Shown: piece after piece, positions 18,617 through 31,112 of the stretch
How positions within the stretch are numbered: the first letter of the stretch is position 1
How the letters are laid out: each line of letters begins with the position of its first letter
Source of the DNA: an uncultured Chloroflexia bacterium
GTDB lineage: Bacteria; Chloroflexota; Chloroflexia; QHBQ01; JADMIH01
Assembly (NCBI GenBank): GCA_963797095.1
Contig: CAWCNY010000003.1
Coordinates: 768,001-832,000 of the forward strand
Direction: 5' to 3'
DNA length: 64,000 bases
The notes under the pieces: generated by a model
What the model saw: only the letters and a program-made list of their open reading frames with translations
Databases searched by the model: none
Told to the model about the DNA's origin: nothing
Position numbers and translations under genes: made by a program

Positions 18617-21600
18617 ATGCCCACAAACAACCACACCAAGCACAGAGCCGGGATCTTGGTGACTTTCATCGCCACGTTCGCGGCCCTGATCGTCCTGGGA
18701 GCGGTCATCGCGGCCGCGGACGCGGAGGGGCAAGCGTTTGCCTCGCTGCCCGCCGGCCAGGGGGATCCAGTTCACCCCCAGCAGCCCGCCCTGGCAGTGG
18801 TGTGCGTGGACAACGCACATGGCATGTATAATCCCGGCGCGCCATGCTCCAACACGACTATCACAACCACAATCGAGGCCGCCCTGGCCCTGGTGGACAG
18901 CGGCGGCGAAATTCGCGTGGCGGCCGGCAACTACGATGCAGCGGCCACCGCCACCCAGCCAGTCAGCATTGTGGGTGGGTATGCTGGGGGTGCGGGTGGC
19001 TTCGTTAGTTCCGATCCGACGACTAATGTCTCTCAACTGGGCCAAGTCACAGTGAACAGTATCATGCAGGCCTCTAACTTTACCCTTGTAGATTCGATCG
19101 CCGGTACAGGCACCCTCAACCTGGCAGGCGTTGTCACGTGGTCCAACGGACAGATGACCGGTTCCGGCAGCACCACCATACAGTCGGGAGCCGTGCTTAG
19201 CGCCACCTGGGGTAATAATCTCGTGGGCCTGTACGGGCGCAACCTCAACAACCAGGGCACCATAGTCTTCAGCACTACTCGCGCTCTCGACCTGGCTAAT
19301 GGCTCTGTGCTCACTAACAGCGGCACATTTAGCCTGCTTTCCGATATGCTCCTGAACAAAGACGGAGGGGCTACGCCTACCTTTAGCAACAATGGCGTGC
19401 TACGCAAGCCCACAGGCACACCCGACATCGCCATCACCAACAACACCAACGGCATAGACTTCCACAACACCGGTCAGATAGACATACAGTCGGGCAAACT
19501 GAGCGTGGCAGGTGGCAGCATCTACCTCGACACAGGTACAACCGTGACGGGTATGGGCTTCTTCAGCTTGCCCGACGGCACTGCCAACTTCAGCAGCGCC
19601 TCTCCTATCAGCATATCTCGTCTTGAGCTTGGTTTGAGCGGGCTTATCACAGGCACGGGCGACTTGCAGGTGACAAGCGTGTTCAGCTGGACCGGTGGCA
19701 CGATGATGGGTCCGGGCAGCATGACGATACAGTCGGGCGCTAATCTCAATGCTATTTTCAATGTGAACGGGGTAGGCACATATGGGCGCACAATCAACAA
19801 CCAGGGCACTACCGTTTACAGCACAGGCGGCAGAACGCTGGACATCGGCACAGGCACAGCTTTCAATAACAACGGCCAGTTTCAGGCCGTGAGCAATTTC
19901 CCCATAAGCAATAGCACGGGGGGCGGCAACTCCTTCTTCAACAATAACGGTTCGTTCGTGGCGCAGTCTTCCACAATCACCACGGTTGGCGCCAACGTGC
20001 AATTCACCAACAGCGGTACGGTAGATTTGCAGGTATGCACCCTCACCCTGAACGGCACATATGTCCAGGCCGCGGGTCTCACGCACCTGGATAACGCCAT
20101 CGTCGGTGGGGGGAGTACGATGACCCTGAACGGGGGCGTGCTGTCGGGCACAGGCACGATCGGCAATCCTGTTACCAATACCAACGTTAGCAACAACGGC
20201 GGCTATGTCAGCCCAGGGGATAGTCCGGGCACGCTGACCATTTACGGGGTATACACCCAGGGGGCGGGTGCGACGCTCAACATCGAGCTTGGCGGCACCA
20301 CGCCGGGCACCGGCTATGACCAACTTGCGGTGCATGGAGCGGTCACGCTGGCGGGCACCCTCAACGTGAGCGCTATCAATGGCTTTGTGCCCCTGAACGG
20401 CAACCAGTTCACGGTGTTGACATATAACTCGCGCACGGGCATGTTCACGCAAATAACGGGCGGGCAGTTCAGCGCAGCTTACAACGCCAACGACCTCACT
20501 TTGACTGTGACGGGACCTGTGGGGACGGCCACCAGCACCCCTGGCGCGACTAACACACGCACAAACACACCCACTCCTACCCGCACACCCACGACCGGGT
20601 CCACGCCCACTCACACCCCCACGAGAACGAACACGCCAACCAACGCCCCCACCAACACGCCCACCAGAACATCTACCAATGTACCCAGCGCAACAAGTAC
20701 AAATACATCCAGCGTAACACCAACCAATTTCCCGAGTGCAACTTATACAAATATCCCGACCAATACACCCACACGTACTGCTACACCTTGCCCAGAAGCC
20801 TGGAACGTGGTTACCAACCCTAATCCAGGTATTTCTAGTGCATTAAACAGCGTAGCAGTAGTGGGGCCAACCAATATATGGGCTGTTGGTAACTACTCTA
20901 ACGATGGTACTAATTACCAAACTCTGATAGAACACTGGGATGGCTCAGTATGGAGCGTAATTGCCAGCCCCAGCTTTGGTCTCTTTGATGGGCTTGAGAG
21001 TGTGGCGGCAGCGGCGGCGAACGATGTGTGGGCTGTGGGCTCCTACACAAACGATGGCACTAATTACCAAACTCTGATAGAACACTGGGATGGCTCAGCT
21101 TGGAGCGTAGTTGCCAGCCCTGGTCCCGGCACGTATTGCAATCTACGAGGAGTTGCAGTAGCAGGGGCAAACGACGTGTGGGCCGTTGGCTACTGCAGTA
21201 ATGGTAGCACTAATTACCAGACATTGATGGAGCACTGGGATGGCTCAGCTTGGAGTGTTGTTGCCAGCCCCAATCTGGGTACTTCAGATATTCTGGACAG
21301 TGTAGCAGTAGCAGCGCCGAACGACGTGTGGGCCGTTGGCTACTACGGTAACGGCGGCTCCGACCTGACGTTGGTAGAACACTGGGATGGCTCAGCATGG
21401 AGTGTTGTTGCCAGCCCCAATCCCGCTGCATCAAATTTGCTGAACGATGTGGCGGTGGCCGCGCCGAACGACGTGTGGGCCGTTGGCAATTCTAGTGGCG
21501 GAACATTGATAGAACACTGGAACGGTTCGGCGTGGGTCGTCAGCGATACCGGTGGTGGTGGCCTAGGAGGGGTAGCGGTAGCAGCGCCGAACGATGTGTG

Positions 21601-24337
21601 GGCCGCTGGCTCTAATGGCGGGACATTGATAGAACATTGGAACGGTTCGGCATGGAGTGTTGTTGCCAGCCCCAATCCCGGTCCTACTAGTAGCCTACGA
21701 GGGGTGGCGGTAGCAGCGCCGAACGACGTGTGGGCCGTCGGTCTTTCAATAAACGGTGCCAACTCAAGCACATTGGTTGAGAGGTATAGCAGCACTTGCG
21801 GCATGACCGGCTCACCGACTTCAACGTCTACCATAATTCCAAGCGCCAGCATCACTCGTACAGCCACTGGCACCCCTACTCAAACACCACATCTCAGCCC
21901 GACCAGCACCCGAACTAATACGCGCACCAGCACACCAACATATACCCCTACACCTTGCCCGTTATCATACTGGACGCTCGACACATCCCTACCAGGTGCG
22001 CGAATGGGCGCGGCAGTAGCCACTCTTGGGAGTTTCCTGTATGAAGCTGGTGGCTACGCACCAAGTGGCAGTGCAGCTCCACAGGGCGACATAAAAGGCG
22101 ACTCACCAGAGGTAACCCAAGGTGCCACAGCAAGCCTGGATAATCCTCTCATGAACGTGACTCTCACTAACGCGGCAGGCCGCTTCAACGGGACCGGATG
22201 GTCATCGATAGCCAATCTACCTATTGCCGTAGAAGATGGCACAGGAGTAAGTAACGGTTCGCGCTTTTACGTCATGGGCGGGTATGCTGCTAGCAGCGTT
22301 GAAACCGCCGTGCAGATATTCGATCCAGGTAACAATTCATGGTCGCAGGGTGCGAGGATGCCTTCGGCGGCAGCGGGGGCAGCGGGAGTCTACTATAACG
22401 GTCGAATCTACTTGTTTGGAGGGTGTGCTAATCTACCGTGCACCGTTGCCCTCAACACCGTCCAGATATACAACATTGCCTCTAACTCATGGTCGATGGG
22501 CGCTGCAATACCGCAGAATTTGGACTTCGCATCGGCCCAGGTGATAGGCTCGTACATCTATCTGGCCGGAGGGGTAGGCCCATACCCAGCACCCGCCTCA
22601 GCCAAGGCGTACCGCTATGACCCTGCCACCAACTCCTGGAACGATCCAATCATGGCCGACCTGCCTCAGACCTGGTGGGGAGCCGCCTCGGCGGTGTATA
22701 GCGGTAAGTTCTACATGTACGGAGGGATATTGAATGGATATGACACGCTAACAAACCACACTGTCATCTATGATCCGGTATCGAATAGATGGAGTTACGG
22801 GCCGGATATGCACGTAGCCTCCTATCGCCAGCAGGGCGATACCTATCAGGGCACACCGCACATAGTGGGTGGGTCAATGGGCGTATTCATTCCAAGCAGT
22901 CACGTGGAGAAGCTTACAGCACCATACTGCGCAACGCCTTTACCCACCGCCACGATCCCGCCCGGCTCGACCAGCACCCGCACACCTACCCATACAACAA
23001 CCAGTACAGTAACCATCACCCGCACCCCAACCCGCACAATTACCCCCGGCGGTCCGACCAACACGCGTGGCCCCAGTCCTACTCCTACTCAAGACGATTA
23101 TCAGATCATCAGGGGCACGGCAACCATCGTACCCGGCACAGTAGATCTGGGTAGCCACTGCAATGATTGTTACACGACTATCTGGCTTCCGTTTACAGTA
23201 CAGTTGTATGGCCGCTCATTCTCATGGGTCTCCTCTGCATCCTCTAATGGCTTAGTCATCTTCGTGTCGGGTTCCGGTGATCCCAGGAACGTTTGTCTAC
23301 CGGTGAACTTTACCTACGACACCATCTTTGCGTTCTGGGATGACCTGACAACGGCATGCACAGGCTGCGGCATATACGAGTCGATATCCGGCGTGGCGCC
23401 CAACCGTATTCTCAATCTGGAGTGGCGAGCCCAGCTCGTTGGGGGTACCAGGCCCGTAAACTTCGAGGTCCGCCTGCATGAGAACAGTAGCCGGTTCGAC
23501 CTCATATATGGCGAGATAGACGGCAACGGCAGCAGTGCCACTATTGGCGTAGAGCACGACAATGCTGTGTACACACAATATTTGTGCAATCCATCCACGC
23601 CCGGCGATAGCGCGCACAATCCTGATGACTTGATACAGACAGGTGACATGCTCACTTTCCAGCAGCCTGATACCGGAGAGCCGTCACCCACCCCCACCGC
23701 CTGCGCGATCCAATTCTCCGACGTGCCAGATGGGTCCACTTTTTACTCATACATACGCTGCCTGGCCTGCCGTGCCATCCTGAGCGGCTACTCCGACGGC
23801 ACCTTCCGACCCAACAACCCCATCACGCGCGGTCAGCTCGCCAAAATAGCCTCCAATGCGGTTGGCCTGAACGAAGCGCACACCGAGCAGTCGTTCCAGG
23901 ATGTGGAGGTGGGCAGCACCTTTTACGACTTCATAGCCAGGCTATCGGTGCGTGGCTACATAAGCGGCTACGCGTGCGGCAGCCCTGGCGAACCATGCGG
24001 ACCCAATAACCTGCCTTACTTCCGGCCCAACAACAACGTCACGCGAGGGCAAGCGTCCAAGATCGTGGCAAACGCGGCGCTTCTTAGCCCCATCCTCCCG
24101 CCCGGCCCCCCGTCCAGCCTGCAAACGTTCCAGGATGTGCCGGAAGGGAGCACTTTCTGGGAGTGGATCGAAGAGATGGCAGGCAACGGCATAATCAACG
24201 GCTATCCCTGCGGAGGGCCAGGCGAGCCGTGCGGCCCCGACAACCTGCCTTACTTCCGGCCCAACAACAACGTGACAAGAGGCCAGGCAGCCAAGATCAT
24301 CGCCAACACCTTCTTCCCCGACTGCGAGACACCCTAG
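18617..24337 (+). CDS. Large S-layer-homology (SLH) surface protein: beta-helix-like region, Pro/Thr linkers, 7x NDVWAVG repeats, Kelch repeats, C-terminal SLH domains
   Basis: Signal peptide; G/N/T-rich passenger-like region; TPTNTP linkers; Kelch motifs ([21 protein letters not shown]); [20 protein letters not shown] repeats; SD AGGAGG. Confidence 0.9.
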
Positions 24338-24444
24338 ATGGACGTGTTGCAACAACATTTGAGTTATAAAGCACACAGCACCAATCGCAGCCAGGCTCGT
24401 CCTCGTCGATGATGCGGCTCAAGTCGCAGTAGAAAGCTCGCGTA

Positions 24445-24813
24445 GTGACGGGGCAGGTTCGAGCTATATCCAGCGCCGGGGCCTGGCAGCACGTGCCTAC
24501 CACCCTGGGACCCGGTACTCCGGTCGGAGATATCGCGTTGCTGGCGGGTGGGCCGTCAACTTCTACCTTCGAAGTTGCTATCAATGCCGATCTATTGGCC
24601 CGCTCCAGCGAAGATTTCGAATATGCCTTGCACCGGCACCCCGCAATAGCTAACAATCTCTCCCGGATCATGGCGCGACGCTCGCGCGATTTGGACTCCC
24701 GGAGGATTGATGCGTTCGTCAAGCGAGGTGAGGAAGCAGCCCGCACCGCCATACCCAGGATCACGGAACTACTCAAACCGGGCACGCAGGAGACTACTGG
24801 CGAGACCCAATAA
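24445..24813 (+). pseudogene. Collapsed cNMP-binding / patatin-like remnant
   Basis: LGPGTPVGDIALLAGGPSTST..HPAIANNLSRIMARR (cNMP-binding-like) fused to RIDAFVKRGEEAARTAIPRITELL (resembles the patatin/NTE terminal helix). Confidence 0.5.
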
Positions 24814-24827
24814 GGATTGAATATGCT

Positions 24828-25011
24828 ATGATAAAGAACCAAGGTTAGCATAACCATAAAGCGGCCTGCCCACGAAGTATTCGCCTATGTAACTCGCGTG
24901 GTAGGTCCTCTCCTGGTGGGTCGCCTCAGGCAACAGGCCGAAACAAACCTTGCCAATCTCAAGCCCGAATTGGGGCAGCGCGTAGCGCTCCCTGCGGAGC
25001 AGCAGCCATAA
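24828..25011 (+). pseudogene. Collapsed SRPBCC remnant
   Basis: Removing one extra A gives MIRTKVSITIKRPAHEVFAYVT joined to RVVGPLLVGRLRQQAETNLANLKPEL, i.e. only the first strand/helix and last helix of the fold. Confidence 0.55.
24975..25003 (+). repeat. 24-bp palindromic unit, locus 1
   Basis: GCAGC-GCGTAGCGCTCCCTGCGGA-GCAGC. Confidence 0.9.
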
Positions 25012-25043
25012 CCCTGGCGTTGTCTCCGGCGTTAAACGTGTGA

Positions 25044-26330
25044 ATGACTGAGCGGGAGTTAGATGAAACTATGATATCTTCACAGAAACAGACAAGACGC
25101 GTGGTAGTAACCGGTATGGGGGCCGTATCACCGCTGGGCAATGACGTAGAAAGCACCTGGAAGGCTGCGGTCCAGGGTCGTTCGGGCATTTTCAACATTA
25201 CCCGCTTCGACGCAACTCCATATGAGACACGCTTCGCCGGTGAAGTCAAAGGCTTCAGGGCCGAGGAATACGTGCCTCCAAAGAACATCAGGCGAATGGA
25301 TCGCTTCATTCATTACGCGATGGCGGTGTGCAAGCAGGCAGCGGGCCAGGCGCAACTCGTTATCAATGAAGATAATGCGGACGACATTGGCGTGATTATC
25401 GGCTCGGCCATAGGTGGCATCGAGACCTTGACGGAGGCGGTGCGCACGCTCGATAGGGAAGGCCCCTATAAGTTGAGCCCGTTCGCCGTACTGATGATGC
25501 TGACAGACCTGGCAGCCGGGCAAGTATCTATCGAAATGGGCATGCGAGGGCCTAATCTTGCTATTGTCTCGGCTTGCGCCTCCTCTGCGCATGCCATCGG
25601 CGAATCGGTTGAGATAATCCGCCGGGGGCAGGCGCAAGTCATGTTCGCGGGCGGTGCTGAGGCCACAGTTTGCCCCGTGGGATTATCGGTGTTCGGGGTC
25701 ATGCGTGCCCTCTCTACCCACAACGATGAACCTCAAAGGGCCTCGCGCCCTTTTGATAAGCTGAGGGACGGCTTCGTGCTATCAGAAGGGGCTGCGGTGC
25801 TGATCCTGGAAGACCTCGAGTTTGCCCAGGCCAGGGGCGCATCCATTCTGGCAGAGATTGTAGGTTACGGATCTACCGCTGACGCCTCCCATGTTACAGC
25901 CCCTCTGGAGGGCGGAGTAGGTATGGCGCGAGCGATAGTTCGGGCTCTCAACAGCGCCGGACTCGAGCCGAAAGACATAGATTACATCAATGCACATGGC
26001 ACCAGCACGCCTCTCAATGATAAGAACGAGACGGCGGCCATAAAAACGGTCTTCGGTGAGGATGCCTACAGGATACCCGTTTCTTCAACGAAGAGCATGA
26101 CCGGACACATGGTAGGCGCGACGGGCGCTATTGAGATGATCTTTTGCATCAAAGCTATTCAGGAAGGTATAGTTCCGCCGACCATCAACCGGCAGGTGCC
26201 CGATCCTGAGTGTGATCTCGATATTGTGCCTGATGAGGCACGCCGAATCAAAGTAAGACGAGCGCTCTCGAACAGCATGGGATTCGGTGGGCATAATGCC
26301 GCCCTTATCGTGAAAAGTTTCGAAGACTAA
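25044..26330 (+). CDS. fabF: Beta-ketoacyl-ACP synthase II
   Basis: RRVVVTGMGAVSPLG, catalytic SACASS, NAHGTST, STKSMTGH, SNSMGFGGHNA; alternative start 25071. Confidence 0.95.
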   Translation: MTERELDETMISSQKQTRRVVVTGMGAVSPLGNDVESTWKAAVQGRSGIFNITRFDATPYETRFAGEVKGFRAEEYVPPKNIRRMDRFIHYAMAVCKQAAGQAQLVINEDNADDIGVIIGSAIGGIETLTEAVRTLDREGPYKLSPFAVLMMLTDLAAGQVSIEMGMRGPNLAIVSACASSAHAIGESVEIIRRGQAQVMFAGGAEATVCPVGLSVFGVMRALSTHNDEPQRASRPFDKLRDGFVLSEGAAVLILEDLEFAQARGASILAEIVGYGSTADASHVTAPLEGGVGMARAIVRALNSAGLEPKDIDYINAHGTSTPLNDKNETAAIKTVFGEDAYRIPVSSTKSMTGHMVGATGAIEMIFCIKAIQEGIVPPTINRQVPDPECDLDIVPDEARRIKVRRALSNSMGFGGHNAALIVKSFED

Positions 26331-26570
26331 CCTCACTTCCAACTTTGGTACTCAATCAATTTCGGCAGGCTCAGCGTCTATGATCCCGCCCCATAGATAG
26401 CAGGCCTTTGGGTCGGTCGCTTTAGTAGTTGCAACACAGCCTCTATGGTATACTAGGGCATATTCGGAGATATTCGGACAGACTTGTACCTATTGATTAG
26501 GTACTTTGTCAGGTATATTACTTTAGATTATTAGTGCAGCCCTGCCGCTCTGGCTGCGAAAGGCGTCGGA

Positions 26571-29252
26571 TTGGGTACTGAACAGGGCTCTGATACTGAT
26601 GTCCAAAGGATCTCTCCTCATACCCATGATCCTGCTTCCCCGATGTTGGGCCCTCAGGGCGCGCTCCCTGCAACACCCAACCCATCGATCTACTCTCCGA
26701 CCCTTCTTAGCAACTCTATCCTGAATGGGCGTGGGAATGGCCCGGTGCGCATATCGCTGATCCAGCAAATGCAGCAATCGCACGGCAACCGCGCCGTACA
26801 GAAATTCCTCCAGAGATCCTCCACAGCAAACTCATATCCCAAGCACGACAGTAGGATAGCTCCGATAACTCCGATAACTCCGGCCCCGTTCACAAACCTC
26901 GCCGAATACGAAGCGGAAAACCTCAACTTATCTGCTCCTGAGCCCACATCCCTTCCTGAGCTCCACCAACCTCAAATTCATGGAAACCAGGAGATAGAGA
27001 CGGACAGGTACGGGCGGCTGGAGCAGCGCATAGCGCTCCCTGCGGAGCAGCGCGTAGATGGCCTGGTTCTTGTACAGCGCTGCGGTGCGGAGGTGCATGA
27101 AGGCTGTGCCTGCGCGGCGCATAAGGGAGCGTCCGCAAGTCCTGCTGACAAAGACAATAGCCAGTTACCTGTGCAAACGCGGCGCGGCTCAGATCATTTG
27201 CAGCGGGTGCCCGCCTCCACTTCAGGGACGCGCGCCTCTGGCGCAACAGGAATGCCTGTGCAGAGAGATGGTAAGACAGGCGCCCAACCTGCACCCACTG
27301 GAGGCATCCAGGCCCCATCCGGACCCCCACCATCCGCGGGCACCATAATTAAACTGCCGGGGGCAACACTCTTCAACGTCTCCAAGGCTATCGATGTGGG
27401 GAAAGGTACCGAGGGTTCGGTGCCCCTTTACGAGGGGCTTGTCGAAGTGCCCTACATCGGACCTGTGAAATTGGACGTGAAGGGCACAGGCAAACTGTCA
27501 CCCTCGCTCACGCTAAGTGCATCGGGCAGTCTGCATGATGCGCAAGTGCAAACCCCTTCTACTTTGGCGCAGACAGGTGCTAAGATGGAGGCGAGTTACG
27601 CGAAGGAGGGCACTACCGTAGGAGGCGCTGTTGGAGGCTTTGTACGCAATGTCACCGGCAGCGAAACGGCAGGCGGCCTTGCAGGGGGCGCTGTCGGGGC
27701 AATGGTAGGATCGGTTGGAGGAGGTGCCTATGGGGCATACAAAGGCGGCGAAGCCGGAATACGAGCCGGCGCCGGCCTGCCAACCGCGCCTGTCTCTTCC
27801 AGCGCGCCGATGCTCGGCTCAGCTAAACTCACCGCCGAAGGACAGGCCAAAGGTCGCCTGGACGGGGAGGTGGCTATTGAAGCCAGCGCTAACCCAACTC
27901 TGCTACCGGGCAAGGGCAAAATCAAGGTGGGGTTGAAGGGCGGCCTCGGCCTGGGAGCCACCGGGCAGGCCACAGTAGGCGCTCAAGTTGGTTACGACCC
28001 GGAATTCAAGGGTAAGGGCCGGGACAAAGAAGTACCGATCAAATTCCAGGATGGTAAGTTGACGCTGGAAAAGGCCAGCCTCGATTTGAAAGCCTCGATC
28101 AACCTCGACCTGAGGGCTATAGGCTTTGCTGAAGCCAGGCTTCTCCTGGGTATCGGCAGGTTCCATGACGATCGGGCAAAGGCCGGGACTGCCCAGGGAG
28201 CCGCCCCTGCGAGCGCACCGGGGAGCGCTTCTGCGGGTCCCTCTCCGAGCCCTTCAGCGGGTGGGGCTGGGAAGGGCGGCGCAGTCTGCAAGAAAGTTGA
28301 CGACAAAGAGGCGCTCCCCGACAAGGCCTGGGACGACATGACCAGTATCGAAAAGGTCTGGCGCAAAGAGTGGGACCTGCTTAATAAGGAGTGGAAGCTA
28401 TGGGAACTGGCTTTCTCCGTCTCCACTTCCAAACCCGGCGATAATATGGAGGCTCAGGTTGAGCAGAAGAACATAAAGGTAATAGATGCCAACGAATGGC
28501 TCAACACCATAAAGAAGGTGGGCACAGCGGTTGCAAATGCTCCCAAGGCGTTGGGGGCTGCAAAGAACGCCTTGGGCCTCAATACGCCTGCGAATGACAA
28601 CGACTGCATACCTGATGAGTCGCCCGGCGCTGTAGAGGAGGATGTTAAAAAGGCGAAGGCTGCTTTGGGAGATAGGCTATTCTGGCGCGAAGAACTTCAA
28701 AACGTCCTGGGCCTGGGCAAAACTGCGGCCTTATCGCGTATCACGAAGTGGAAAGCACAAGCCATACTCCACCAACTTGCGTCAACAACCTTCGACAGCG
28801 AAACTCAGTACTCTTTCGATTCAACCAAGGCCGGCCAGCGCGAGGTTTCGCCAGGCAACCGCGCTAAATACGGGTTTACAAACCCGGCGAAGACCTCGAC
28901 CGTAGGGTTGCAAATCCTGACCAAGGGGCTTAGATCCGATTCACCCCCACCCATTCAAAGTGGTAGCGCGGAGTACCACCAGACAAAAGCCAGATACGAT
29001 AGCAAGCGAGGTCCCGCTCATAAGAACTTCGGCTTTGATGTTGCAGTTCTCGGCCATGGTCCCGAAGGCGCTTCCACATATTGGAATAGGATTGGACACA
29101 CGCAGGCTAAGGCTGATAACAAAGCCTGGAACAATGATGCCGCCAACTATCATGGCCCCGAGCATGAGGCCGAGTCCGCTGCATCAGGAGGCAGCTCCGA
29201 GCGCTATCGCGTGCCGTCCCAACTCATTGGAAGCCACTCTGACTGGTTGTAA
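26571..29252 (+). CDS. Putative polymorphic toxin with eCIS-effector-like QR motifs and C-terminal HNH/EndoVII (GH-E-like) nuclease
   Basis: GNRAVQKFLQR, VQRCG, LQR and PVQR motifs; glycine-zipper; C-terminal LGH..ASTYWNRIG..WNNDAANY..PE; followed by SMI1/KNR4 gene; start uncertain. Confidence 0.75.
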   Translation: MGTEQGSDTDVQRISPHTHDPASPMLGPQGALPATPNPSIYSPTLLSNSILNGRGNGPVRISLIQQMQQSHGNRAVQKFLQRSSTANSYPKHDSRIAPITPITPAPFTNLAEYEAENLNLSAPEPTSLPELHQPQIHGNQEIETDRYGRLEQRIALPAEQRVDGLVLVQRCGAEVHEGCACAAHKGASASPADKDNSQLPVQTRRGSDHLQRVPASTSGTRASGATGMPVQRDGKTGAQPAPTGGIQAPSGPPPSAGTIIKLPGATLFNVSKAIDVGKGTEGSVPLYEGLVEVPYIGPVKLDVKGTGKLSPSLTLSASGSLHDAQVQTPSTLAQTGAKMEASYAKEGTTVGGAVGGFVRNVTGSETAGGLAGGAVGAMVGSVGGGAYGAYKGGEAGIRAGAGLPTAPVSSSAPMLGSAKLTAEGQAKGRLDGEVAIEASANPTLLPGKGKIKVGLKGGLGLGATGQATVGAQVGYDPEFKGKGRDKEVPIKFQDGKLTLEKASLDLKASINLDLRAIGFAEARLLLGIGRFHDDRAKAGTAQGAAPASAPGSASAGPSPSPSAGGAGKGGAVCKKVDDKEALPDKAWDDMTSIEKVWRKEWDLLNKEWKLWELAFSVSTSKPGDNMEAQVEQKNIKVIDANEWLNTIKKVGTAVANAPKALGAAKNALGLNTPANDNDCIPDESPGAVEEDVKKAKAALGDRLFWREELQNVLGLGKTAALSRITKWKAQAILHQLASTTFDSETQYSFDSTKAGQREVSPGNRAKYGFTNPAKTSTVGLQILTKGLRSDSPPPIQSGSAEYHQTKARYDSKRGPAHKNFGFDVAVLGHGPEGASTYWNRIGHTQAKADNKAWNNDAANYHGPEHEAESAASGGSSERYRVPSQLIGSHSDWL
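27021..27057 (+). repeat. 24-bp palindromic unit, locus 2 (about 1.5 copies, in frame within the toxin)
   Basis: GAGCAGCGCATAGCGCTCCCTGCG-GAGCAGCGCGTAG, encoding EQRIALPAEQRV. Confidence 0.9.
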
Positions 29253-29303
29253 CTTAGTTGCTACATATTGCGAATTATAGAGTGCTCCAGGATAACGTTG
29301 CTT

Positions 29304-29406
29304 GAGCAGCGCGTAGCGCTCCCTGCGGAGCAGCGCGTAGCGCTCCCTGCGGAGCAGCGCGTAGCGCTCCCTGCGGAGCAGCGCGTAGCGCTCCCTGCGG
29401 AGCAGC
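29304..29406 (+). repeat. 24-bp palindromic unit, locus 3: tandem array of 4 perfect copies plus 7 nt
   Basis: GAGCAGCGCGTAGCGCTCCCTGCG at 29304, 29328, 29352 and 29376, then GAGCAGC. Confidence 0.97.
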
Positions 29407-29640
29407 TTACTGCCTATGGCGCTCGGAATTGGCGGACCCTGCTGGAGAGTGTAGTCCGGCAGACGTCCATTATAGCACATATGTGCTGTTATGCTGTCAG
29501 GACTAGAGATAGTACACACTGTGCAAACGCGAATATGAGCAACCACACACTTGACCCACCTTATTCGCGCCTGACCACAGCCCATGAATGGGCATGGCTT
29601 TAGCCATTCTATTGTAAGTTCAACCGGGAGGGAAATGCAG

Positions 29641-30234
29641 ATGTCGAATAAGGGTGTAGCAGCGCGTAGCGCTCCCGGCGGAGCAGCCAGAATGCGCGAA
29701 GTCTGGGACGATATTGAAGCATGGTACAAGGAGAACGCGCCTCGCCTCTACAATGACTTAGACGAGGGTGCTTCCGAAGAAGAAATAGAAGATGCAGAAA
29801 GGCAACTCGGCCTGACCTTGCCCGAAGATTACAAAGCGTCATTGAAGATACATAATGGCGATGTATACCTGCACGACTATAACTATCTAAGCCTGAAGGG
29901 CGCCCTTCGCAAGTGGTCGCTCATGGTGCGCCTCGGCAAAGAAGGCACGTTTGAGGGCAGAGAGGTTGTGGGTGCAAGCGATGGCAAGATACAGGACAGA
30001 TGGTGGCACGAAGGTTGGATACCCTTCGCGGAAGATGGTGGGGGTAACATGCTCTACATAGACATGGCCCCGGGCGAAAAGGGCAACAAAGGCCAAATAC
30101 TACAGATGGAGCTTGATTCAGGACCATTCAGCACTGAATACAAGTCCTTCCTCGAGTACATGGAGCATTACAGGGACGCGCTACAACGTGGCGTTTACGA
30201 GGTCAATTCAGACGGCATGCTTTCCGAAGCGTGA
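29641..30234 (+). CDS. SMI1/KNR4 (SUKH) family immunity protein
   Basis: GASEEEIEDAERQLGLTLPEDYKASLKIHNG; WWHEGWIPFAEDGGGNMLYIDMAPG..GQI; SD GGAGGG. Confidence 0.92.
   Translation: MSNKGVAARSAPGGAARMREVWDDIEAWYKENAPRLYNDLDEGASEEEIEDAERQLGLTLPEDYKASLKIHNGDVYLHDYNYLSLKGALRKWSLMVRLGKEGTFEGREVVGASDGKIQDRWWHEGWIPFAEDGGGNMLYIDMAPGEKGNKGQILQMELDSGPFSTEYKSFLEYMEHYRDALQRGVYEVNSDGMLSEA
29658..29687 (+). repeat. 24-bp palindromic unit, locus 4 (in frame in the immunity gene N-terminus)
   Basis: AGCAGC-GCGTAGCGCTCCCGGCGG-AGCAGC, with one substitution in the hairpin loop. Confidence 0.9.
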
Positions 30235-30458
30235 CACATGCGATGGTGCATACAACCGAGCGACACAATGTTGATGTGGGGGCGATAAACCGGGTGTGAA
30301 CTTTGCAGCCCCGAGGCAGTAAATCGGAGGGGTGCTTCACTGAGCGAACAACGCGGCATGTTCCGGCAGCGATTGAGTGCCCTGCAGAACGCACTCATAT
30401 ACGCCCCTGAGCACGAGAGCAGACAAGCCTGGACGCCACGTATGATGTATAATTGGGC

Positions 30459-31112
30459 ATGGGCAATATGGGCACCATGGGAAGAGCATACCATCGCCGC
30501 AGACGGTCTGGCTACCTTGTCTATTACGACAGGCCGAGCAACTCCACCCCATTTCGCTCCCTGGTACGCTATGCGCGACGGCTGGACCGGACTCACGTCA
30601 GTTCTTCCCTGATGGCGGTGCTGGTGGGGTTTGCACTGACCATGATCTGCCAGGGCCACTTCGTTGACGGCCGGTTCACCGGCCCGCACCTGATGATCCT
30701 GGGCGGATCCATGCACCACGATGCATTTGCCCATCAAGACTTTCCTGAGGACGGCACCTGGGATCCCGCCCAACCGGATGGCATAGGTATAGACGATCCA
30801 GCCACACTCGATCATCACAGCCATGCCGGTGTCTACCCCCAAACCCAGGCATTTACCTCGACAACCCCCACAACGCCCACAGGAAATTCAATCGGCGCTA
30901 ACTCAGCCAAGGCTGCCCTCAACCCCCTGGTGGAATCGGGAAGCAGCGTCGCCCTGAGCTACCTGATCACTCTGTTGCTACTGGGGTTTGCCCTCAGTCT
31001 GCGACGCGGCGAGATAGGAGAGACCAACCAGCACAGGTCACAGGTCAACTCCCCGCCCGACCCTCCCCCGCCGCGCCCTTATTCTACCGGCGCTCTTGTA
31101 TTAGCGCCCTAA
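30459..31112 (+). CDS. His-rich membrane/exported protein with C-terminal polyproline (DUF2946/CutF-like leader candidate)
   Basis: Hydrophobic segment then CQGH, MHHDAFAH, DHHSH; second TM; SPPDPPPPR near the C-terminus. ATG 30459 lies 5 nt after TATAAT (30448-30453), possibly leaderless. Confidence 0.6.
   Translation: MGNMGTMGRAYHRRRRSGYLVYYDRPSNSTPFRSLVRYARRLDRTHVSSSLMAVLVGFALTMICQGHFVDGRFTGPHLMILGGSMHHDAFAHQDFPEDGTWDPAQPDGIGIDDPATLDHHSHAGVYPQTQAFTSTTPTTPTGNSIGANSAKAALNPLVESGSSVALSYLITLLLLGFALSLRRGEIGETNQHRSQVNSPPDPPPPRPYSTGALVLAP

Follow-up and report, generated by a model that had tools for sequence, protein, structure and literature searches.

The subject of this report is a 24-nt palindromic unit, GAGCAGCGCGTAGCGCTCCCTGCG, that recurs in a 64,000-nt stretch of DNA (the window; positions 768,001 to 832,000 of contig CAWCNY010000003.1) and elsewhere in its source assembly (GCA_963797095.1, here G000) from an uncultured Chloroflexia bacterium. 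The nearest described kind is that of the GTAG-tagged repetitive extragenic palindromic (REP) elements (Di Nocera, De Gregorio and Rocco 2013, PMC3733652), above all GTAG-1 of Thauera sp. MZ1T and GTAG-23 of Thermomicrobium roseum, with which the unit was compared by their published description only. These elements are described there as stem-loops of 20 to 40 bp with a stem of 5 to 13 bp, a loop of 2 to 20 nt, and an unpaired GTAG tag that is >90% conserved in most families and degenerate in some. They are said to be mainly extragenic and mostly arranged as inverted (head-to-head or tail-to-tail) dimers, head-to-tail pairs being absent or rare. Subfamilies differ by complementary stem changes and G-T pairs, the families are species-specific with 20 to 100 units, and copies within open reading frames (ORFs) encode tens of residues at loops or termini. 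GTAG-1 is given as small, with a 5-bp stem, and tandemly clustered; GTAG-23, from a member of the Chloroflexi, is clustered as well (PMC3733652).

With a length of 24 nt and a GTAG followed by a 5-bp stem, our unit agrees with these elements in size and stem. Unlike them, it has an intact GTAG in only 25 of 43 units, lies mostly in genes (10 secure and 2 possible genic loci of 19), forms head-to-tail arrays only (all 10 arrays), and has neither a REP-associated tyrosine transposase (RAYT) nor a Y1 transposase gene flanked by the unit (0 of 4) in the genome. The family departs from the usual features of GTAG-tagged REPs in lacking the extragenic inverted dimers and the association with a RAYT and, less clearly, in the conservation of the tag.

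The Rickettsia palindromic elements (RPEs; Ogata et al. 2000, 2002, as summarised in PMC10969869) are alike in being in-frame palindromic repeats in unrelated genes that add extra peptides at permissive sites, and insertions that are in frame and absent from orthologues are found here in four genes: those for galactokinase (GalK), an MshEN-domain protein, a DUF190-CBS protein and a GT4 glycosyltransferase. RPEs differ in being single copies of ~100 to 150 bp in the Rickettsia lineage, built on a long palindrome and coding for a peptide specific to the family, whereas the present unit is 24 nt long with stems of 4 to 5 bp, is tandemly repeated to as much as 56 aa, belongs to Chloroflexota and is unrelated in sequence. 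Small dispersed repeats of 21 to 27 nt are cited for Nostocaceae in PMC3116915, and one of them, SDR5, is placed at HIP1 sites in PMC5861425. Our unit is like these in size (~24 nt) and in its use of a short target word; the sequences are unrelated. Such small dispersed repeats are reportedly thought to be mobile without coding capacity. We know of no tandem amplification or in-frame genic copies among them. Heptanucleotide arrays resembling the short tandemly repeated repetitive (STRR) sequences, found in cyanobacteria and in G000, also form short tandem arrays at gene boundaries, sometimes in frame; they differ in their period of 7 against 24 or 25, and our unit has a two-hairpin anatomy and a constant AGCAGC boundary.

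We propose, with about an even chance of being right, that the family is a young, species-private, REP-like “mini-hairpin satellite” that is seeded at pre-existing AGCAGC words, grows by slippage and is filtered by selection. A preliminary description of the window had taken the unit to be inserted in frame into genes and mobilised by a RAYT; the first of these readings holds and the second does not.

Distribution of the unit

The degenerate consensus RAGCAGCRCGNAGYGCTCCCTGCG was used as census pattern on the whole of G000 (6.02 Mb in 8 contigs, 93% complete; contig labels C2 to C8 are used below), with the reversed pattern as control. Allowing 0, 1, 2, 3 and 4 mismatches gave 28, 37, 43, 43 and 49 units, against 0, 0, 0, 0 and 2 for the control. 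The matches at up to 4 mismatches form 23 loci, from which two lone intragenic matches with 4 mismatches (C2:1097891 and C6:578973; probable chance) and two copies of a sister unit were left out. The final census holds 43 units at 19 loci, on C2, C3, C4, C6 and C8 and on both strands. Nine loci are single units and ten are head-to-tail arrays of 2 to 7 units, with no inverted pair among the 19. The unit is a dispersed element and not private to one locus; this part of the earlier reading, of a mobile element, is borne out, and the part that invoked a RAYT is not. An ordinary coding variable number tandem repeat or minisatellite was rejected because the same unit lies at 19 unrelated loci on 5 contigs; amplification in place after seeding is still supported. 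Three loci have a period of 25 nt, with CTGCGCAAGCAGC replacing CTGCGGAGCAGC (C3:958764, three units; C3:960221, one; C8:114672, five).

A 20-nt degenerate pattern with at most 1 mismatch has 43 matches in G000 and none in 40 relatives, of which 24 belong to the same genus, 14 to the same order and 2 to the same class (four are unpublished, and without these the count is 0 of 36). Counts of a junction pattern at up to 3 mismatches in the relatives were no different from those of the reversed control, and a 30-nt pattern had no match in a collection with one genome for each of 185,579 species. A 23-nt pattern matched three isolated single copies in metagenome contigs (65 to 70% GC), none of them with a trailing partial unit, and one viral contig, whose sequence is identical to one of the metagenome matches; all of these look like chance matches in coding sequence. 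No unit was found in the plasmid and phage collections, which were searched with the BLAST low-complexity filter on, a setting that may hide repeats. Rfam gave no match at E up to 1 across window positions 24000-31000. Among all collections searched, the repeat family is private to the G000 genome.

Within the window the unit has seven matches at up to 3 mismatches, every one on the + strand, with 0 expected, and none of 100 dinucleotide-preserving shuffles of the window contains any. They fall at the four loci named in the preliminary description, whose 24975 and 29658 differ from our 24973 and 29657 in phase only, and the flanking (A)GCAGC direct repeat noted there is real: every window locus ends in a partial next unit. 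The first locus (24973..25003, + strand) is a single unit, GGGCAGCGCGTAGCGCTCCCTGCG, at 24973-24996 with 1 mismatch, followed by a 7-nt partial unit, GAGCAGC, at 24997-25003. It is placed at the 3′ terminus of an open stretch of 58 codons (24835-25008), reading ...GQRVALPAEQQP and then a stop, and lies 40 nt upstream of a fabF-like ORF (25044-26330). The open stretch, which had been called an SRPBCC remnant, has no ATG and no Pfam match. The second locus (27021..27057, + strand) consists of the unit GAGCAGCGCATAGCGCTCCCTGCG at 27021-27044 with 1 mismatch (loop G10 to A) and the 13-nt partial unit GAGCAGCGCGTAG at 27045-27057, and is in frame in an 893-aa ORF (26571..29252, + strand), translated EQRIALPAEQRV. 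The third (29304..29406, + strand) is an intergenic head-to-tail array of four exact 24-nt units (29304-29399) with a 7-nt partial unit, GAGCAGC, at 29400-29406, and begins 52 nt past the stop of the 893-aa ORF. The fourth (29657..29687, + strand) is a single unit, TAGCAGCGCGTAGCGCTCCCGGCG, at 29657-29680 with 2 mismatches, again followed by a 7-nt GAGCAGC (29681-29687). It occupies codons 6-14, in the N-terminal tail, of an SMI1/KNR4 (SUKH-1) gene (29641..30234, + strand; Pfam PF09346, 1.5e-23, domain from residue 43); an alternative in-frame ATG lies downstream of the unit at 29692, and that start would put the unit in the leader. The last two genes had been described as a toxin-immunity pair, of which the SMI1/SUKH-1 member is clear and the putative polymorphic-toxin-like 893-aa ORF matches no Pfam or NCBIfam family.

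An assembly artefact, or a set of independent local tandem duplications that are merely alike, is scarcely credible as the source of this pattern. A long-read assembly can misstate the number of tandem copies, and no read or contig of the soil-metagenome runs bridges 24973, 27021 or 29657, but one and the same 24-mer could not have arisen independently at 19 unrelated loci, the reversed controls being 0, and every genic copy leaves its long ORF open. The read search turned up three DNA runs from soil metagenomes, in which the share of the words present was 0.12, 0.10 and 0.00, and not a single RNA run. Contigs of the soil runs (54 to 241 nt, at low depth) cover array interior and have loose ends that match other arrays; short contigs of two runs join array interior to the right flank of the MshEN locus on C8 and carry the 25-nt variant, evidence from runs that may be the source sample and so not independent.

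Other tandem repeats are plentiful in this genome. Tandem Repeats Finder reports 2,259 arrays, 676 of them with a period of 7 (STRR-like heptamers, e.g. GAGTGAC and AACCAGG), and a 20-mer, AGAGGAGAGCTTGCAAGAGG, forms arrays of 6 to 9 copies at several loci on C2, C4, C5 and C6. The copy at C3:960221 adjoins GAGTGGT/GAGTAGC heptamers, and the first 14 nt of the unit resemble two degenerate heptamers (GNGNAGC).

Unit anatomy and mini-hairpins

Read across the junction of adjoining units, the repeat is GCGNAGC + AGC + GCGNAGC + GCTCCCT, that is, it has two mini-hairpin heptamers, both on one strand only; the complement of the heptamer has a TNC loop, which is not of the mini-hairpin type. The 25-nt form has a GCGNNAGC motif at the junction instead of GCGNAGC. 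Among 23 locus-types, position 1, the loop N of the junction heptamer, is G in 11, A in 5, C in 4 and T in 3, and position 11, the loop N of the internal heptamer, is T in 12, G in 6, A in 4 and C in 1. Positions 8 and 14 vary as G/A and C/T, and each of the remaining 20 of the 24 positions shows at most 3 departures. In 29 unit-plus-context entries the pair 8/14 is G-C in 14, G-T in 6 and A-T in 9, and is never unpaired; A8 occurs only together with T14 (one-sided Fisher 0.003, shared descent not corrected for). The internal loop is GNA in 27 of these entries (loop G fixed in 27, loop A in all 29), and all 29 junctions are GCGNAGC or, in the 25-nt form, GCGCAAGC. The variation between loci points to two GNA mini-hairpins as the constrained feature.

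Several alternative folds are available to the unit, including AGCGC-GTA-GCGCT and CTGC-GGA-GCAG, with hairpins of only 4 to 5 bp. Two hairpins, AGCGC-GTA-GCGCT and GCTCC-CTGC-GGAGC, had been proposed in the preliminary description; the second best fits the variation as CTGC-GNA-GCAG and not as GCTCC-CTGC-GGAGC. The latter, preceded by GTAG, has 5 bp, or 6 bp (TGCTCC/GGAGCA) in the T14 variants. GTAG had also been taken as a REP tag; among the 18 units without an intact one it is replaced by GGAG (9), GAAG (6), GCAG (1), ATAG (1) or GGGG (1), and in the fold that best fits the variation it forms the loop of a hairpin. The 31-nt element is predicted to fold as AGCGC-GTA-GCGCT plus CTGC-GGA-GCAG at -6.9 kcal/mol (z = -0.35, ViennaRNA, against shuffles).

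Heptamers of the form GCGNAGC, with a C-GNA-G triloop, are known for DNA mini-hairpins of exceptional stability. Among GCNNNGC fragments, only those with GNA loops are reported to form mini-hairpin DNA, with melting temperatures (Tm) of 70 to 76 °C (Kimoto and Hirao 2026, PMC13037366); GCGCAAGC has a Tm of 72 °C, RNA versions are far weaker, and conventional thermodynamic models do not account for the stability. The natural cases described in that paper are single sites, at phage priming and promoter sites (phage single-stranded DNA origins and N4 promoters). Our unit resembles mini-hairpin DNA, d(GCGNAGC) and d(GCGNNAGC), in having two GCGNAGC heptamers whose variable positions are exactly the loop N, and differs from the known natural cases in being a dispersed tandem repeat, here known from sequence alone. 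In a search of the literature that was not exhaustive, no publication was found to connect GCGNAGC mini-hairpins with a repeat dispersed in a bacterial genome.

Placement in genes and empty sites

Genic calls were based on stop-to-stop ORFs scored by a codon model trained on G000, together with Pfam. Ten of the 19 loci are in frame within well-supported genes, two more are uncertain (the 58-codon open stretch 24835-25008 and the N-terminal region of a spermidine-synthase-like ORF) and seven are intergenic. In the sense orientation, five units are found mid-protein in the galactokinase (EQHGVLPA / EQRGVLPA), seven in a linker of the MshEN-domain protein (EQRVALPA), one in a linker of the DUF190-CBS protein (QQREVLPA), two in the C-terminal tail of a HisKA_3 histidine kinase (EQREALPA), one in the C-terminal tail of a GAF-GGDEF protein (EQHGVLPA), one past the N-terminal domain of the toxin-like ORF of the window (EQRIALPA) and one in the N-terminal tail of the SMI1/SUKH-1 gene of the window (VAARSAPGG). 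Antisense copies are two units in a loop of the GT4 glycosyltransferase (SQGALRAA), two in the C-terminal region of a DUF389 protein (PQGALRAA) and one at the C-terminus of a flavodoxin-like protein (PQGALRAV). The hosts are functionally unrelated, and, that of GalK apart, the genic copies occupy tails and linkers that fall outside Pfam domains, or else a variable loop.

Four of these hosts have orthologues in which the site is empty. GalK is matched in 24 of 25 other same-genus genomes (three unpublished), and the orthologues listed match as two adjoining pieces, skipping query residues 255-290. All nine aligned public same-genus orthologues (nine loci; two from unpublished genomes were left out of the alignment) are without exactly 40 aa, equal to five units, between VPLG[LF] and E-x-x-G. 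The MshEN protein has an orthologue in 1 of 25 genomes (65% identity), which is shorter by 56 aa, equal to seven units, and to which the G000 protein minus its seven units aligns gap-free. At this empty site the orthologue reads ...CCG/GAGCAGCGCGCC, where CCG GAG CAG CGC GCC already contains the first 10 nt of the unit. Two of three orthologues of the CBS protein were extracted, and both are shorter in a variable Q-rich linker, by 7 residues (83% identity) and 3 residues (70%), with a native CAGCAGC at the empty site. All seven public GT4 orthologues are without 14 to 15 aa in a variable loop. In these four host genes orthologues lack the repeat-encoded residues, and parsimony suggests that the units were added in the G000 lineage, in agreement with the in-frame insertion proposed earlier; a native AGCAGC word is already present at two of the empty sites, MshEN and CBS, as (G/C)AGCAGC. 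For other copies no such comparison was available: homologues of the SMI1 protein (at most 53% identity) begin to align only at residue 16-18 and offer no orthologous site for the unit at 29657; no synteny upstream of fabF, and no orthologous site for the unit at 24973, was found in four relatives; no orthologous site was found for the unit at 27021, only the N-terminal ~90 aa of its ORF being conserved among paralogues; and the C-terminal tail of DUF389 is too variable among orthologues for a call.

An AlphaFold2 model of the galactokinase from a 10-sequence alignment (mean predicted local distance difference test score, pLDDT, of 81.7; predicted TM-score, pTM, of 0.81) has a sole long low-confidence segment at residues 211-246 (pLDDT <50). 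The insert spans residues 208-247, between strands 199-204 and 252-258, and on this model is read as probably tolerated at a permissive loop site.

The unit is stop-free in five of six frames, as was stated in the preliminary description, the sole closed frame being AGC AGC GCG TAG, with the TAG of GTAG, and the window genes do use two different frames, which read EQRIALPA in the 893-aa ORF and, in the SMI1 gene, VAARSAPGG. Whether the unit is built to preserve frame, as also proposed, is doubtful: the 24-nt form is the one in genes, but the 25-nt period is present at three of seven intergenic loci and at none of the 12 genic ones. Because all three 25-nt loci are intergenic, the in-frame property of genic units looks like a survival or selection filter, not a frame-preserving design. 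In ORFs of at least 400 codons, 27% of GAGCAGC sites are in the EQ sense frame, 7% in the AA sense frame and 15% in the closed sense frame, and in antisense 35% are in the RRERYALL frame, 13% in the QGALRAA frame and 2.5% in the third frame, whereas the ten secure genic loci use EQ six times, AA once, QGALRAA three times and RRERYALL never (p ~0.01 for the zero). Relative to the local gene, 14 of all loci are sense, 3 antisense and 2 unclear; when neighbouring loci are counted once the figures are 9 versus 3 (p ~0.07). The orientation and frame bias is modest, and peptide tolerance or a link to transcription could be its cause.

The same bias would speak for copies that are selected and not selfish, with the unit kept for a function of its own: as a module of proteins (EQRVALPA), as a regulatory RNA, or as a site of protein binding or priming. 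The excess of sense copies, the EQ frame at 6 of 10 secure genic loci with the commonest available frame, RRERYALL, never used, and the report of mini-hairpins at phage priming and promoter sites (PMC13037366) would suit it. We nevertheless consider it very unlikely, since the unit is used in three frames, on both strands and at seven intergenic loci, in hosts that have no function in common; it was found in no relative searched, has no Rfam match and no excess fold stability, and the orientation bias shrinks once neighbouring loci count once.

Some features of the host genes and of the window around the copies deserve mention. The G000 MshEN ORF (C8:127650-129416) has 589 codons including its seven units, and its sole orthologue (in genome G014) is a 1,153-codon open frame with more domains past ...DPFELS; downstream of its array the G000 gene may have been cut short or rearranged. 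In the toxin-like ORF of the window only residues ~10-100 are common to many paralogous ORFs in the order, and the unit sits in the non-conserved part beyond. Its first ~90 residues (26571-26870), with the motif ...GNRAVQKFLQ, recur as the N-termini of dozens of ORFs of very different lengths, in 14 other genomes of the order and at five other places in G000. They match no Pfam model and behave as a trafficking or pre-toxin domain common to these ORFs would. The gap between the array and the SMI1 gene (29442-29620) has short matches on many contigs of one relative, G001, and some of another, G015 (pieces of 59 nt at 81% and, once, 179 nt at 74%), which suggests another dispersed repeat or the end of an insertion sequence (IS). 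Further upstream, a 1,906-aa ORF (18617-24337) has, by eye, long Pro/Thr-rich linkers, WAVG/HWDG propeller-like units, Kelch-like repeats and three C-terminal SLH-like segments, and is by its appearance a giant cell-surface protein.

Growth and dispersal of the arrays

The boundaries of the arrays are sharp. Of the 19 arrays, 14 begin with AGCAGC (after one variable base), 16 with GCAGC and 17 with CAGC, and all 19 end in a partial unit of at least 5 nt, always after AGCA(G), the partial unit being 5 to 8 nt long at 15 loci and 10 to 14 nt at 4. The word (R)AGCAGC, then, stands at the start and at the end of an array, and was present beforehand in the orthologous empty site where one is visible; GAGCAGC has 1,798 copies in G000. 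Units are identical within 6 of the 10 multi-unit arrays, and the GalK variants come in blocks (3 + 2), which fits amplification in place. The variant GCGTAGCGC is common to the window loci, all four of which lie on the same strand within 4.7 kb, and to the three loci on C8. A8/T14 is common to the three loci at C3:952-960 kb, and GCGGAGTGC to the two at C2:989.6-989.9 kb. Identical units within arrays and variants common to neighbours point to amplification in place and mainly short-range spread.

In the mechanism that we propose, mini-hairpins on the G-rich strand would stabilise slipped-strand mispairing intermediates and so let arrays grow. A nascent or displaced strand ending in AGCAGC may pair with a copy elsewhere and return, a microhomology-driven template switch that would leave whole units at a new AGCAGC site; seeding would then take place without a dedicated RAYT, and selection would purge frame-breaking or disruptive copies. 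The variable end homologies of 5 to 14 nt, the native 10-nt match at the MshEN site, and the sharing of variants and strand within clusters fit template switching better than a transposase with a fixed cut. A model of two-sided homology was dropped, as a left flank resembling the 3′ end of the unit is clear at only 2 to 3 of the 19 loci. No replication-strand bias could be assessed, GC skew being noisy on all 8 contigs and no replichore callable.

Several points weigh against this account. Boundaries this sharp and constant (17 of 19 starts at ...CAGC, all ends after AGCA(G)) are equally expected from a site-specific enzyme, and variant lineages at four or more loci are what an enzyme would give. 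Spread to five contigs by 6 to 10 nt of microhomology alone would be rare, and the 93% completeness of the genome means that an enzyme gene could be in the missing part. We infer the seeding of new loci, no filling event being among the data compared: the relatives are distant (orthologues at 50 to 83% protein identity), with no polymorphic or recently filled site among them. Units and loci are related by descent, and the covariation counts are not independent events. Nearest-neighbour folding, for both RNA and DNA, gives no excess stability (z = -0.35 to +0.9; arrays ~0), for which reason the hairpin argument rests on the published oligonucleotide data and the pattern of variation. As a whole the package of seeding, slippage and selection remains about evenly poised; its seeding step by template switching is less likely than the package.

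The chief competitor, which we regard as doubtful, is a minimal REP mobilised in trans by an HUH Y1 enzyme, either a RAYT or an IS200/IS605 TnpA, that inserts 3′ of AGCAGC and itself ends in AGCAGC, so that self-targeting would build the arrays. A target-like word is constant at both array ends, several variant lineages are each present at four or more loci, and GTAG plus a stem of 5 to 6 bp fits the format of GTAG-tagged REPs, a superfamily described as including 5-bp stems, tandem clusters and intragenic units (PMC3733652). G000 also has four Y1 genes (PF01797, Y1_Tnp), three of them IS200/IS605 TnpA with TnpB-like ORFs downstream and the fourth a lone gene for 150 aa. The RAYT model NF047646, however, has four matches in G000, none above its cut-off of 80 bits and the best at 38, and the lone gene is IS200-type by NCBIfam (61.6 bits, against 19.4 bits for the RAYT model); the mobilisation by a RAYT proposed earlier is not supported. 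Nor is any Y1 gene flanked by the unit: none of the four, all of IS200/IS605 type, has unit-like sequence within 700 bp. The resident IS605-like copies use another target (TTATC) and other ends (GGCGGCTAAGAC...AGCCGCC), unrelated to the unit; the incomplete conservation of GTAG and the want of the inverted pairs typical of REPs and REPINs speak against the Y1 model too, and the 10- to 14-nt terminal partial units at four loci are unexpected from a fixed cut site.

A sister 24-nt unit provides the only link between the repeat family and Y1 elements, and counts in favour of the enzymatic model. An element of 376 bp is present in two copies at 99% identity (C4:557507-557880 and C2:787241-787616); its left end is the hairpin that also forms the left end of the IS605-like element at C3:965.9 kb, and the sister unit, AAGTAGCGCGTAGGGCTCCCTACC, is found twice just inside. 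The element is probably an IS200/IS605-derived miniature inverted-repeat transposable element (MITE) with a nested mini-repeat, which then moved. That the unit itself is an IS200/IS605-derived MITE (a palindrome-associated transposable element, PATE) was rejected: its ends and target are unlike those of the resident IS, and only the sister unit lies inside such an element. The lone Y1 gene (C4:494955-495404, minus strand) is without a TnpB partner. An amidophosphoribosyltransferase-like gene follows closely downstream, and in front of the Y1 gene stand small GC-rich hairpins that have 1 to 3 copies genome-wide and form no dispersed repeat.

Scans for Y1/RAYT, reverse transcriptase and GIY-YIG genes found no dedicated enzyme beside the repeat loci; the three GIY-YIG matches are not near any of them. 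Template jumping is a mechanism known from the DRT2 literature. By analogy, a telomerase-like or DRT2-like reverse transcriptase might use a short RNA template with AGCAGC...AGCAGC ends and add units in tandem at 3′ ends finishing in AGCAGC. The one-unit element has the repeated-end layout needed for template jumping, arrays hold integral numbers of units, and the genome has at least 10 reverse-transcriptase loci (24 matches), but none is near a repeat locus, the nearest being tens of kb away, and no separate template-like copy was found beside a reverse-transcriptase gene. This pure analogy is, in our judgement, highly improbable.

It is also conceivable, though unlikely, that the pair of GNA-triloop mini-hairpins spreads autonomously to new AGCAGC sites, through transposase-free template switching by nuclease-resistant single strands that hairpins stabilise, or through a hypothetical single-stranded DNA enzyme that reads GNA mini-hairpins. 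If true, this would place the unit with the smallest DNA elements known to spread by themselves, and would make it a natural source of 8-aa insertions in proteins.

Tiny palindromic repeats in genes are already known from RPEs and intragenic REPs, and their route of arrival is mostly obscure. The present family is unusually clean: it is young, confined to one genome, has four empty sites defined to the codon, and its 25-nt and 24-nt forms are split by location. The new point is the presence of two GCGNAGC mini-hairpin motifs per unit, which make the seeding mechanism testable and link mini-hairpin DNA, biologically obscure so far, to the spread of a repeat on the scale of a genome. With this family it can be tested whether slippage driven by hairpins, together with template switching and with no transposase, can disperse a repeat and remodel proteins, as in the 40-aa loop of the galactokinase.

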